A stretch of 64,000 nucleotides of DNA, taken from positions 2,368,001 to 2,432,000 of the forward strand of contig OY762492.1 of assembly GCA_963665845.2 (NCBI GenBank). The letters run 5' to 3'. This DNA is from Candidatus Poribacteria bacterium (GTDB lineage Bacteria > Poribacteria > WGA-4E > GCA-2687025). The notes under the pieces are model-generated. The model saw nothing but the letters and a program-made list of their open reading frames with translations. It was not told the DNA's origin and did not search any database. The number at the start of each line of letters is the position of its first letter. Within the stretch, counting starts at the first letter, position 1. Of the stretch, positions 54,988 to 60,320 are shown in pieces. Both the position numbers and the translations under genes were made by a program.

Positions 54988-55587
54988 TTAAGACATCTTC
55001 GGCGCGGCTTCTAAACCCCATACTTCCCATCCTTCAGGGGCTGGGCCGCGGGCAAAAAGTTCCAACTTGCGCTGCGTCGGAAACATCTGGTCGATTCGTT
55101 TGCGTATCTCTTCCGGTTTTTGCGAATGCGTCCGCCGCGGTTCCGACAGCAGTTGCCGGACGTTGCGCGCGCCTCTCGGCGTCGGTATGCGCCCTTTTTT
55201 AAAAACAAGGCACAGCTCGCACTGGCTCATCGTATAAAAACCTGGGTTGACGCGCATCTTGTCCCAAACGAACGCGACCGTCGCCCAACGAAAACCCCAC
55301 GCTTTGCCGAGGTCAACGGCTTGATCTAGGTGCGGATTCGTTGTCCACATAAAAAGCAGGCTGTCCTCGGCGGCCGCCTGTCCAACATCAAGCGTTTTGA
55401 GAGCGGACAGCGCGACGGTCGGATAATGGCGGACGGCGCCGCCGGTGTCGCCGCTCCCGGCGCCGGCATGCTGCAGCTGCCCCTTGTAGTCCCACGGCGG
55501 ATCGGCGTACAGTATCTCAAATTGAGCGGGCGGCAGCGGCGGAAACAGCGCGCTGTCGGCGTCTGCGTTGTCGAACATGTTTTTCAA
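54988..55587 (-). CDS. MT-A70 family N6-adenine methyltransferase
   Basis: ILYADPPW, LFMW, AWGF, FVWDK, HSQKPE, KLELFAR, GWEVWG. Likely start is TTG 55587 or ATG 55578 (AAGGAG RBS; TGnTATACT upstream) rather than 55653. Confidence 0.9.
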   Translation of the reverse strand: MKNMFDNADADSALFPPLPPAQFEILYADPPWDYKGQLQHAGAGSGDTGGAVRHYPTVALSALKTLDVGQAAAEDSLLFMWTTNPHLDQAVDLGKAWGFRWATVAFVWDKMRVNPGFYTMSQCELCLVFKKGRIPTPRGARNVRQLLSEPRRTHSQKPEEIRKRIDQMFPTQRKLELFARGPAPEGWEVWGLEAAPKMS

Positions 55588-55694
55588 GCGCTCTCCTTCG
55601 GCGGGGGCGACGTTCGGATAGTATAACACACTTTCTGGAAAATTCAGGCGCATTGCAGGCGTTTTAAGATTCCCGCTTGCGCGGGAATGACGCG

Positions 55695-55792
55695 GCGCCG
55701 CGTCCGATTCCCCCTTGAAAAGGGGGCTAGGGGGTTTAAAGGAGGGCGCGGCTGCTGCGGCGCCTTAAGATTCCCGCTTACGCGGGAATGAC
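55695..55792. repeat. Composite repeat: CCCCTTGAAAAGGGG hairpin plus ATTCCC-N8-GGGAAT palindrome
   Basis: Alignable over ~95 bp with 63009-63110. The hairpin alone also occurs near 47765, 48795, 48822 and 60425. Confidence 0.8.
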
Positions 55793-55989
55793 GCGGCGGG
55801 GAGGGAATAACGCGGCGGGGAGGGAATGACGCGGCGGGGGAGGGAATGACGCGGCGGGGGAGGGAATGACGCGGCGGGGGAGGGAATGACGCGGCGGGGG
55901 AGGGAATGACGCGGCGGGGGAGGGAATGACGCGGCGGGGAGGGAATGACGCGGCGGGGGAGGGAATGACGCGGCGGGGGAGGGAATGAC
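55784..55989. repeat. G-rich tandem repeat (VNTR), 10 units of 19-20 bp plus a partial unit
   Basis: Unit GGGAATGACGCGGCGGGG(G)A, head to tail, no spacers. Confidence 0.95.
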
Positions 55990-56108
55990 AGCAAACGGGC
56001 TGAAGCTTCTTGAGAATCCGGCGGAAGCTGCTAGACTGCATGCGCCTTGCCTTCCGCTTGGATCGTCAGGCGCAGCGTCCATTTCCGTTTTTGTTAAAAG
56101 GAGACGCC

Positions 56109-57335: not shown

Positions 57336-58130
57336 ATGCGCACCGAACTGACCCAAGACCAGATCAAGTTCTACCGAGAAAACGGCTTCATTGTGCTGGA
57401 CGAATTTTTAGACGCGGGCGAACTGGAGGAGTGGCGCGAAGCGGTTGATGAGACCGTCCACAAGCGGGGAATGTATCTTGACCCTGAAAAACGGCGCGAG
57501 AAAAGCGGCTACTACCAGCGCGTCTTCATTCAATCGCTCAACATGTGGAAAGAAAGCGAGCGCATCCGCAAGCTGATCCTCGATCCCAGAATCGGCGAGA
57601 TGTGCTGCAAGCTGGAGGGCATGAGCGGGTACCGCGTCTGGCATGATCAGGCGCTCATCAAGGAACCGTGGGCGAACCAGACCAGCTTCCATCTCGACAA
57701 CCCGTACTGGTCGTTCAGCTCGCCCCATGCGGTCAGCATCTGGGTCGCGCTGGACGACGCGACCTATCAGAACGGGTGCCTTTACTTTTTGCCGGGGACG
57801 CACAAGCAGGCGCGTTACGACAATGTCGGCATCGGTCCGCATTTCGGCGCGCTGCTTGACGTCTATCCTGAATGGGCGGAGATTGAGGCGGTCGCGGCGC
57901 CGATGAAGGCGGGCTGCTGCTCCTTCCACAACGGACTCGTCGCCCACGGCGCCGGCGCCAACGCGACGCCCGGCTATCGACGCGCCATGACCTGCGGCTA
58001 TATGCCGGACGGCGCTACCTTCAACGGCAAACAGAACATCTTGACGAACGAGCAAATAGCGCGGCTGGAGATCGGCGACCCGCTCATTGACCCTGAGCAG
58101 AACCCGCTCGTGTTCTCTACGGAGGGGTGA
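57336..58130 (+). CDS. Phytanoyl-CoA dioxygenase (PhyH) family protein
   Basis: FYRENGF, HLD (HxD), WVALDDA...NGCL..LPGTH, distal His in AHGAGAN. Confidence 0.92.
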   Translation: MRTELTQDQIKFYRENGFIVLDEFLDAGELEEWREAVDETVHKRGMYLDPEKRREKSGYYQRVFIQSLNMWKESERIRKLILDPRIGEMCCKLEGMSGYRVWHDQALIKEPWANQTSFHLDNPYWSFSSPHAVSIWVALDDATYQNGCLYFLPGTHKQARYDNVGIGPHFGALLDVYPEWAEIEAVAAPMKAGCCSFHNGLVAHGAGANATPGYRRAMTCGYMPDGATFNGKQNILTNEQIARLEIGDPLIDPEQNPLVFSTEG

Positions 58131-58180: not shown

Positions 58181-58222
58181 AAAAAAAAGAACCGAGGGAT
58201 CTTAGAGACACAGACCCCTCGG
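58181..58222 (-). terminator. Intrinsic terminator, minus strand
   Basis: CCGAGGGGUCU/AGAUCCCUCGG 11-bp stem (the G-U pair exists only on the minus strand) followed by UUCUUUUUUUU. Confidence 0.8.
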
Positions 58223-58379
58223 AACAAAAGGAAAAAATAAGGAAGCGCCGCCGCTCAAAAAAGTTGAGCTTATCGGCTGCCTTTATGTCCTGGGAAGCGG
58301 CGGAGCCTCGAGTCGCAACCCGTTTTGGCGCCGCGTGCGCTGTTTGCAGGAACGCCGCAGCCGGATATAGGCGGCATTT
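58181..58379 (-). ncRNA. Candidate structured small RNA (unassigned family)
   Basis: Own predicted promoter, nested complementary segments, intrinsic terminator with U-run; only a 35-codon ORF inside. Confidence 0.55.
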
Positions 58380-58385
58380 GATTTA

Positions 58386-58414
58386 ACTATAGCGCCAAAC
58401 GCGGCCGGCGTCTA
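58386..58414 (-). promoter_or_regulatory. Predicted sigma70 promoter of the candidate sRNA
   Basis: TAGACG-17 bp-TATAGT with an A-rich upstream tract. Confidence 0.6.
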
Positions 58415-58425
58415 TCTTTTTATTT

Positions 58426-58594
58426 CTGACCTTACGTCTTTAGTTGGGACATGCCGGCCGGAGGGACGCGGACGGTTTCGGCGGCGCCTCTAGATTCCCG
58501 CTTGCACGGGAATGACGGCCTGATTGGCGGCGCCTTTTTCCCATGAATAGAGCAATCATGCGTTCAAATGCCCCAACTTTATGCATGAGGTCAG
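58426..58594. mobile_element. MITE family A, copy 3
   Basis: Ends CTGACCTTACGTCTTTAGTTGGGACAT ... ATGCCCCAACTTTATGCATGAGGTCAG. Confidence 0.85.
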
Positions 58595-58708
58595 TTCCCA
58601 AGGCGCGCTGACCGTATAGACCGCCAACAGCCGATACGGCCCAGGCTCCCCGATGACTCGTTTCTTTTCAAGATTCTCAACCGCTAACGCCTTTCCGCCT
58701 TTGCGTTT

Positions 58709-59482
58709 CTATATTGAGTACATCATACGCATCGCTTCGAGAATGTCGAGCGCGTCCACAAGATAGCGTTTCGCTTCCTCCTCAATCTCGCGCGGTATTC
58801 CATGCAGCGCTTCGGCGATCGGTCCAGCGATGGCGGCGAGCGTGTCGGAATCGCCGCCGAGCGAAACGGCGTTGCGAACGGCGTCCTCAAAGCTGATCGA
58901 TTCCAAAGCGCATGCGATCGCTTCAGGGACGGTTTCTTGACAGCTCTCATTGAAGACATAGTTAGGGCGTATTTCGTCCACCGATCTGCTCAGGTCGTAT
59001 CCGTATGTGGAGACAATCTCGCTGCGAATCTCTTGCGGATCCGTGTCATTGAAGGCAAGCCAAATCGCATGCGTTGTCGCGCGGGCGCCTTTCATCCCTT
59101 CAGGGTGGTTATGAGTGACGGCCGTTACCTTGTCGGACGCCTCTAGCGCGTTCGACAGGCTGTCCTTGTTCAAAAACGCCGCCGGAGAGACGCGCATCCC
59201 TGCGCCGTTGCCCCAGCTGTTGTACGGCGCCGGATCGGACGAATAGATCCATCGGACGAAGTTGCCGCCGTAACTGTGGTTGGGATGCTGCCGGCACCAT
59301 CGCTGCATCGTCTGCGCGGGCGGCTTGTCATGCATTAGAATATCCGCGACTGCAGCCGTGCAGACCGTATCGTCCGTGAATTTGCTGCGCGGTCCGAAAA
59401 GCGGAAAATCCTTCGTCTTAATTTGATGCGGGCTGAATTCGTAGGGAGCGCCGACAATGTCCCCAATCACGGCTCCAAGCAT
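58709..59482 (-). CDS. ADP-ribosylglycohydrolase (DraG/ARH) family protein, copy 2
   Basis: GAVIGDIVGAPYE, FTDDT, GNGAGMRVSP, THNHPE, GGDSDT. Confidence 0.93.
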   Translation of the reverse strand: MLGAVIGDIVGAPYEFSPHQIKTKDFPLFGPRSKFTDDTVCTAAVADILMHDKPPAQTMQRWCRQHPNHSYGGNFVRWIYSSDPAPYNSWGNGAGMRVSPAAFLNKDSLSNALEASDKVTAVTHNHPEGMKGARATTHAIWLAFNDTDPQEIRSEIVSTYGYDLSRSVDEIRPNYVFNESCQETVPEAIACALESISFEDAVRNAVSLGGDSDTLAAIAGPIAEALHGIPREIEEEAKRYLVDALDILEAMRMMYSI

Positions 59483-59528
59483 ATGGTTCCTTTCTATGGA
59501 CTTTCAAGCTGCTTCCGCCTTTGCGTTT

Positions 59529-60320
59529 CTATATTGAGTACATCATACGCACCGTTTCAAGAATGTCTAGCGGACGGTCAAGCGCGTCAAGAAGCCGGCA
59601 TTCCGCTTCCTCCTCAATCTCGCGCGGTATTCCATGCAGCGCTTCGGCGATCGGTCCCGCGATGGCGGCGAGCGTGTCAGAATCGCCGCCGAGCGAAACG
59701 GCGTTGCGGACAGCATCCTCAAAGCTGGTTGCTTCCAGGGCGCATGTGATCGCTTCTGGAACGGTTCCTTGACACGACACATCGAAGGAGTAGTCAGGGC
59801 GAATCTCATCCACCGACCTGCTCAGATCGTATCCGTATGTCGAGACGATCTCGCTGCGAATCTCTTGAGGATCCGCACCGTTGAAGGCAAGCCAGATCGC
59901 ATGCGTTATCGCGCGGGCGCCTTTCATTCCTTCAGGGTGGTTATGAGTGACGGCCGTTACCTTGTCGGACGCCTCTAGCGCGTTCGACAGGCTGTCCTTG
60001 TTCAAATACGCCGCCGGCGAGACGCGCATCCCGGCGCCGTTGCCCCAGCTTTTGTACGGCGCCGGATCGGGCGAATAGATCCATCTGCCGAAGTTGCCGC
60101 CGTATCCTTTTCTGGGATGACGCCGGCACCATTGCTGCATCGTCTCCGCAGGCGGCTTGTCATGCATCAGAATGTCCGCGACTGCAGCCGTGCAGACCGT
60201 ATCGTCCGTGAATCTGCTGTAAGGTCCGAAAAGCGGAAAATCTTTCGTCTTTATTTGGCGCCCTCTGCCTTCATACGGAGCGCCGACAATGTCCCCGATC
60301 ACGGCTCCAAGCATACGCAT
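59529..60320 (-). CDS. ADP-ribosylglycohydrolase family protein, copy 1
   Basis: Same motifs; close tandem paralogue of 58709-59482. Confidence 0.93.
   Translation of the reverse strand: MRMLGAVIGDIVGAPYEGRGRQIKTKDFPLFGPYSRFTDDTVCTAAVADILMHDKPPAETMQQWCRRHPRKGYGGNFGRWIYSPDPAPYKSWGNGAGMRVSPAAYLNKDSLSNALEASDKVTAVTHNHPEGMKGARAITHAIWLAFNGADPQEIRSEIVSTYGYDLSRSVDEIRPDYSFDVSCQGTVPEAITCALEATSFEDAVRNAVSLGGDSDTLAAIAGPIAEALHGIPREIEEEAECRLLDALDRPLDILETVRMMYSI

Follow-up and report, generated by a model that had tools for sequence, protein, structure and literature searches.

A block on the minus strand, running from a sigma-70-type promoter-like site to an intrinsic-terminator-like hairpin, is a discrete and previously uncatalogued predicted small-RNA gene of one Poribacteria genus. 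Judged by comparison with four-fold-degenerate sites, than which it is more conserved, the RNA is under purifying selection, and there is a matching predicted fold in the two species of the genus compared. A sequence-only reading of this DNA had offered three functions, namely a trans-acting sRNA, a divergent 6S-like RNA and a dual-function RNA. The first of these fits best, and neither membership of the 6S family nor the dual-function RNA could be upheld. Tentatively, and at somewhat less than even chances, we regard the RNA as a trans-acting sRNA that would act without Hfq, blocking ribosome binding by means of an exposed anti-Shine-Dalgarno-like tract as in Listeria LhrC.

Organisation and genomic setting of the RNA unit

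The window, that is the whole 64-kb stretch of DNA analysed here (G000:C1:2368001-2432000), belongs to the genome of a Candidatus Poribacteria bacterium (G000; 3.98 Mb, 90% complete), and G001 is the sole other species of the genus that was compared. The features of the unit, in window coordinates, are as follows.

58415..58423, minus strand: A-rich stretch preceding the -35 box, with which the conserved block starts on its 5' side (G001 identity begins at 58423)
58386..58414, minus strand: sigma-70-type promoter-like site, with -35 TAGACG (58414-58409), 17-nt spacer and -10 TATAGT (58391-58386)
58181..58379, minus strand: predicted RNA of 199 nt, putative start 7 nt past the -10 box
58247..58375, minus strand: structured body, in which P1 closes a three-way junction and is invariant in G001
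58375-58370 with 58252-58247, minus strand: closing helix P1, 6-7 bp in the predicted fold
58274..58363, minus strand: irregular rod of P2, P3, three short helices and an apical hairpin
58363-58357 with 58280-58274, minus strand: rod helix P2, in a shifted register in G001
58351-58347 with 58292-58288, minus strand: rod helix P3 of the predicted fold
58322-58309, minus strand: predicted apical hairpin with a UGCG loop
58253..58269, minus strand: side hairpin GCUCAA/UUGAGC of 6 bp with a U-rich loop; stem invariant in G001, 1-nt loop deletion there
58226..58245, minus strand: CU-rich tract with anti-Shine-Dalgarno-like motif, 19 of 20 positions pyrimidines, predicted single-stranded; proposed pairing region
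58181..58222, minus strand: intrinsic-terminator-like hairpin (58222-58192; 11 bp, -19.3 kcal/mol) and U-tract (58191-58181)
58270..58377, minus strand: 35-codon open reading frame, most likely no gene (neither stop nor frame kept in G001, a coding score of -13.2 and no site for ribosome binding)

The hexamers TAGACG and TATAGT with their 17-nt spacing, the helices, the CU-rich stretch and the terminator described in the sequence-only reading are all present on this strand. The promoter-like site scores 9/12 and is weak by itself, because 1.7 kb of sequence contains two such sites and its shuffled versions 0.6 +/- 0.8. The terminator went unlisted by the terminator scanner since its loop of 9 nt exceeds the scanner's limit of 8. 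An imperfect palindrome covers the -35 box and part of the spacer (window 58397-58413) and is one base better in G001; it has no further copy in the intergenic DNA of G000, and thus no regulon can be drawn from it.

To the left of the unit a PhyH-family dioxygenase gene on the plus strand ends at 58130 and is convergent with it. To the right lie two ADP-ribosylglycohydrolase genes on the minus strand, the nearer one ending at 58709, and the DNA directly upstream of the unit (about 58425-58600) is filled by dispersed repeats. The unit itself is single copy in G000, with no further genome match longer than 28 nt. It is not an assembly artefact, because one contig in each of four DNA runs (all from one study, possibly of the source sample) spans it without differences. 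Being single copy, and with no recombinase among the adjacent genes, it is probably not a mobile element or bridge RNA.

Short palindromic repeats are abundant in G000, taking up 8.7% of the contig and 33% of its intergenic DNA, and the window has examples at 58425-58600 and 55644-56082. An MT-A70 family methyltransferase gene (54988-55653, minus strand) adjoins the repeat array near 55650-56080.

Conservation in the congener

G001 carries the same promoter-to-terminator block, with 91% identity over 240 nt, between unlike genes. Identity runs from 58423, just upstream of the -35 box, to within the U-tract, and the flanks are unrelated. In G001 the block is flanked by an ABC permease gene, presumably part of a cytochrome oxidase cluster, and by a carbon-nitrogen hydrolase/nadE/rsmI operon, in which we take the last gene to be rsmI from its translation. 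Orthologues of two of these neighbours lie 290 kb apart in G000, away from the RNA unit. By inspection the carbon-nitrogen hydrolase gene has a promoter-like site of its own, downstream of the terminator, in both genomes. The block thus appears as the stand-alone unit that had been proposed. Its different address in G001 indicates independence and not mobility, because many intergenic regions are rearranged between the two genomes. Gene order between the two species is shuffled gene by gene at about 90% identity.

A functional link to the ADP-ribosylglycohydrolase genes, which had been raised together with a check of their homologues, found no support there: in G001 the pair sits on another contig with other neighbours. 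The tandem pair (window 58709-60320, minus strand) is kept together in G001 and, with the query used, was found in 2 of 5 other family genomes.

As a neutral yardstick we used four-fold-degenerate sites in 23 orthologous open reading frames (4 of 27 rows were dropped as shadow frames), of which 2768/3487 (79.4%) are identical between the two species. Against this the RNA has 179/199 identical positions (binomial p 5e-5), the rod core 66/68 (p 3e-5) and the terminator 36/37 (p 2e-3), where the one change turns an A-U pair into G-U. In the promoter 40/44 positions are identical, the four differences all falling in the spacer and both hexamers being invariant. Differences affect 6/104 paired and 14/95 unpaired positions (p = 0.057). 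None of the 22 unpaired rod-core bases has changed (p = 0.006), and the 9-nt terminator loop is invariant as well.

The predicted folds have 46 of 52 pairs in common, P2 being rebuilt in its shifted register in G001. In the consensus fold four pairs are changed on one side and none on both. Of the conservation and covariation that had been put forward as a check, the former is therefore present, above the level of four-fold sites, and no double compensatory change is seen, as two sequences cannot show covariation.

Predicted fold and strand

Over 205 nt the minus strand folds with -79.7 kcal/mol (z = -4.5, 0/200 shuffles as good) and the plus strand with z = -2.5. When the terminator is left out, z is -2.7 on the minus strand against -1.3 on the plus strand in G000, and -2.6 on both strands in G001. 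G-U pairs had been said to favour the minus strand; since the two strands of G001 fold equally well, the strand call rests on the promoter and the U-tract instead.

The structured body is predicted to span some 130-135 nt. The second helix of the sequence-only reading is present but interrupted by a bulged C, with 7 of its pairs formed in the best fold. In the upper rod the proposed GCGGCG/CGCCGC register gives way to AGCG/CGCU, GCGG/CCGC and GCC/GGC. An alternative 8-bp helix, thought to be mutually exclusive with the rod, costs +6.8 kcal/mol in G000 and +12.2 in G001 and has a pair probability of about 0, and therefore does not make an equilibrium switch. Blocking the 5' end of the RNA leads to predicted refolding that is unlike in the two species.

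A tRNA-Cys anticodon-loop mimic and a kink-turn were also considered and rejected by eye, as the flanking pairs and the motif bases do not suit both species.

Searches for families and homologues

At gathering score the window has no Rfam match, and the six matches returned at E <= 10 are all at chance level. As far as Rfam goes, the novelty claimed for the RNA is borne out. By BLAST, full-length matches were obtained in 2/61 genomes, G000 and G001. A model (R1) built from these two sequences matched 7/41 class genomes at E <= 1, 0/5 family genomes at E <= 10 and 4/121 phylum genomes at E <= 0.05; all matches beyond the two species skip the core or cover a fragment and were rejected as homologues. 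The sensitivity of R1 is low because it was built from two sequences, and its range is therefore to be read as not found in the genomes searched.

Pattern scans had a similar outcome. No homologue was seen among the 80 of 88 matching metagenome stretches that were examined, one weak match lying antisense within a coding gene. The GTDB scan returned three matches, the congener and two unsupported ones, and scans of viral contigs returned 0 and 23, none supported. BLAST yielded no match in plasmids and one 26-nt chance match in phages. At 14 loci where orthologues of the G001 neighbours occur, the adjacent regions yielded no homologue, and a family-wide motif pattern matched at or below the control rate. 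In the genomes and databases searched (121 Poribacteria genomes, GTDB, metagenomes, viruses), no homologue was found outside the genus.

The CU-rich tract and a proposed trans-acting role

In the proposed mechanism the RNA would be transcribed from its own promoter-like site to the U-tract, both transcription and its start being inferred; the exposed CU-rich tract would pair with the ribosome-binding sites of mRNAs and block ribosomes, and the body of about 130 nt would act as a protein-bound stabilising module. Two sequence features agree with this. The promoter-like site and intrinsic terminator are the unit's own, independent of the neighbours, and a CU-rich motif complementary to the Shine-Dalgarno sequence is predicted to be accessible, being fully unpaired in 860 (G000) and 983 (G001) of 1000 sampled folds. 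In G001 the tract has 8 nt identical to the 3' end of the G000 16S rRNA. The G000 tract differs by a C-to-U change, and its wobble pairing with the Shine-Dalgarno consensus is worth -9.8 kcal/mol versus -12.2. Among family genomes Hfq was detected in 0/8, CsrA in 0/8 and KhpA/B in 8/8; KhpA and KhpB are candidates for binding the body only because the family encodes them.

The layout is that of Listeria LhrC, described as stem-loop, CU-rich single strand and terminator, acting independently of Hfq (PMC13350326). Likewise the predicted RNA has a 5' stem-loop, a CU-rich single strand and a terminator, with a pyrimidine motif complementary to AG-rich ribosome-binding sites, and its host family is without detectable Hfq. 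The two differ in that the Poribacteria RNA is single copy, has one CU-rich region rather than several, and possesses a much larger three-way-junction body (about 130 nt) which is better conserved than the tract. Membership of the LhrC Rfam family was rejected, there being no sequence or Rfam match, but by analogy the RNA may work like LhrC without being a member.

An SD-like motif precedes 1403/3111 called genes of G000, and pairing with the tract below -12 kcal/mol is predicted for 958 of about 3100 start regions versus 407/2779 gene interiors. No specific mRNA target stood above shuffled controls in the start regions of G000: the best duplex has -22.4 kcal/mol, and most of 25 tract shuffles do better (best values -21.7 to -29.5), so the complementarity is compositional. 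There are 33 similar pyrimidine tracts in the unique intergenic DNA of G000. Moreover, the tract can pair weakly with the 5' arm of the terminator before the 3' arm is made. Over about 22 nt, the G001 copy of the tract differs by 2 substitutions and 1 deletion. Because the unpaired bases of the rod core are invariant and the tract is less conserved, the rod and not the tail appears to be the main functional surface.

This distribution of conservation, with 22 unpaired rod-core bases and a 9-nt terminator loop all invariant, together with a tract that has no standout target, would also suit an RNA serving as decoy or scaffold, in which an RNA-binding regulator would be bound and titrated by the rod loops, with the CU tract as no more than a spacer or a nuclease or chaperone site. 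We consider such a role unlikely, as there is no repeated binding motif (one GGA occurs, and it is paired), CsrA was found in 0/8 family genomes, no candidate protein gene is linked to the unit, and the anti-SD-like motif is left unexplained. The paired GGA and the CsrA count are also the grounds on which a decoy of the CsrB/RsmZ type was rejected. Type I toxin-antitoxin RNAs have an overlapping or long complementary partner and a small hydrophobic open reading frame. Such an identity was discarded here, as no genome match exceeds 28 nt and the plus-strand reading frame is broken by stops in G001.

Comparison with 6S RNA

A second role to be weighed against the trans-acting sRNA is that of the lineage's RNA-polymerase-binding RNA, in a compact 6S-like form, which we hold to be possible though rather doubtful. 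In this model upstream promoter DNA would be mimicked by the rod and the bubble by the junction and its 3'-side hairpin, while the short closing helix would template the product RNA. The place for such an RNA seems vacant: RF00013 matches 0/61 class genomes, versus scores over the cut-off in 4/14 controls, and 6S-Flavo (RF01685) was found in 0/5 genomes, while SRP RNA, RNase P RNA and tmRNA were found elsewhere in G000. 6S genes typically lie at zapA, rny or ygfA, and none of the 20 zapA, 5 ygfA and 1 rny loci examined had a 6S match. When 500 unique intergenic segments of G000 were scanned in two ways, the yield was 16 promoter-terminator units, of which 5 have tRNAs, and 38 terminators preceded by long unique non-coding DNA. 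Among the best 22 of these terminators by z, the present unit alone combines z <= -2.5 with a promoter-like site scoring 9/12 or more and the lack of a following gene on its strand. Since the scans need a terminator, they would miss a processed 6S RNA elsewhere. A scan for 6S-like shapes over 13% of the contig was non-specific.

In its general form the RNA resembles 6S RNA (SsrS, RF00013; 6S-Flavo, RF01685; B. subtilis 6S-1), being a stand-alone unit of 200 nt with an irregular rod of short helices, paired 5' and 3' parts, a short hairpin 3' of the junction and an apical arm. The invariant rod loops would agree with this function too. B. subtilis 6S-1 has a hairpin of 5-7 bp in the 3' bubble, and truncation to short arms leaves it active but 10-fold weaker (PMC8876501). 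The dimensions are however different. The closing stem has 6-7 bp and at most 10 bp in all 11,188 (G000) and 9,671 (G001) folds within 5 kcal/mol, and upstream sequence does not lengthen it. The 5' strand of the bubble, 4-6 nt long, is found 11-16 nt from the 5' end, whereas the product RNA of 6S-1 starts at nt 40 (PMC8876501). Where 6S RNAs have about 160-200 nt, the present RNA has 199 nt with tract and terminator and about 135 nt as folded body, so that the comparison would depend on its processing. The body is below the range of 6S candidates, the shortest known 6S RNA having about 160 nt and lengths under 150 nt having been used for exclusion (PMC9130861). In addition RF00013 gives no score even at E <= 10, the unit is not at zapA, ygfA or rny, and the refolding with a blocked 5' end is unlike in the two species. 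Membership of the canonical 6S family was therefore rejected on the lack of an RF00013 or RF01685 match, the short closing stem, the small bubble and the missing typical synteny. By analogy it is possible that the RNA works like 6S, and it is not filed as one.

Intergenic structured RNAs of narrow range occur in other lineages without recognised 6S, such as Ms1 (about 300 nt), CoRP (516 nt) and scr0792 (about 85 nt), and CoRP homologues were likewise found in one genus only (PMC11077062, PMC9130861). These RNAs have other sizes and showed no similarity to the present unit, for which polymerase binding is conjectural. The most specific form of the proposal, that the missing polymerase-binding RNA of Poribacteria is a miniature 6S-like body with a downstream helix of 6-7 bp and an anti-Shine-Dalgarno tail, seems to us quite improbable. 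If it were true, one RNA could hold polymerase- and ribosome-binding sites and couple the shut-down of transcription and translation.

Some observations were made along with these searches. Of five genomes searched for RNase Y, one gave a full-length match (G003, versus G000, G001, G005 and G012), G000 and G001 having a short domain match only. In 3/5 genomes the gene immediately before that for 5-formyltetrahydrofolate cyclo-ligase is a small one, the product of which, we presume, resembles a microcompartment vertex protein. An intergenic stretch near G000:C1 1534500-1534650 (plus strand) has z = -5.0 and stacked hairpins before a terminator, with no promoter-like site scored, and probably represents tandem terminators.

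The short open reading frame and leader readings

The open reading frame of 35 codons at 58377-58270 does exist, with its AUG at +3 and no Shine-Dalgarno sequence. The G001 copy lacks the stop and stays in frame through the terminator, although the first 31 codons are open in both species. With -13.2 the coding score in G000 is lower than that of every real gene start sampled (up to 800; mean 11.4), and at this spacing the leaderless signature does not exceed background (12/1322). On these sequence grounds it is probably not coding. The dual-function RNA was abandoned with the loss of stop and frame and this score, and a small-protein gene was likewise rejected for want of a conserved reading frame with a translation signal. 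The coding score alone would leave a leader peptide possible, because a likely leader peptide upstream of ileS also has a negative score (-3.5).

That leader (G000:C1:1570209-1570392, plus strand, before ileS, TIGR00392) has a strong promoter-like site, a 29-codon open reading frame with three Ile codons and a terminator, and has no Rfam or T-box match. A similar terminator is found in nearly all of 29 Poribacteria ileS upstream regions, many with tandem ATT triplets before it (by eye). From its sequence it looks like ribosome-mediated attenuation. A motif common to this leader and the RNA unit, present twice in the contig, was picked post hoc and was set aside as chance, as the two RNAs do not align.

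Attenuators of the riboswitch, T-box and leader-peptide kinds share with the unit a promoter, a structured RNA, a terminator and a short open reading frame near the 5' end. They differ in that the unit has no shared downstream gene, no competitive antiterminator and no Rfam match. That it is not a riboswitch leader, as had been argued from the lack of a following gene, agrees with the convergent next gene in G000 and the absence of any downstream gene common to the two species. Riboswitch, T-box and attenuator leaders were all rejected, there being no conserved co-oriented downstream gene and no competing antiterminator; a T-box match was found in 0/1 genome.

An alternative to any trans-acting RNA is that the unit is a cis element or a relic, either a detached attenuator leader with its short peptide or a shuffled promoter and terminator without RNA function. 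At ileS the lineage seems to employ attenuation by a leader peptide, most intergenic regions are shuffled between the genomes, the overall identity of 91% is near the 89-90% of neighbouring coding blocks, the CU-rich tract is able to pair with the terminator 5' arm, and the first 31 codons are open in both species. However, that competing pairing is worth about 4-7 kcal/mol versus 19 for the terminator, and the reading frame has no amino-acid run, Shine-Dalgarno sequence or conserved stop, besides its score far below the mean of real starts. Furthermore the unit is followed in G000 by a convergent gene and in G001 by a gene with a promoter-like site of its own, and the RNA is conserved above four-fold sites in two species without a shared neighbour. 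We therefore judge this explanation improbable.

Significance

Literature searches on Poribacteria together with either 6S RNA or noncoding metatranscriptome work found no paper. The interest of the RNA comes from its context, a family without detectable Hfq and CsrA in a class without an Rfam 6S match in 61 genomes, and its value is bounded by two sequences and a predicted function. Within these bounds the unit is the best candidate found in G000 for the vacant polymerase-binding RNA, and as a conserved stand-alone RNA it offers a first handle on RNA-based control in the uncultured Poribacteria.
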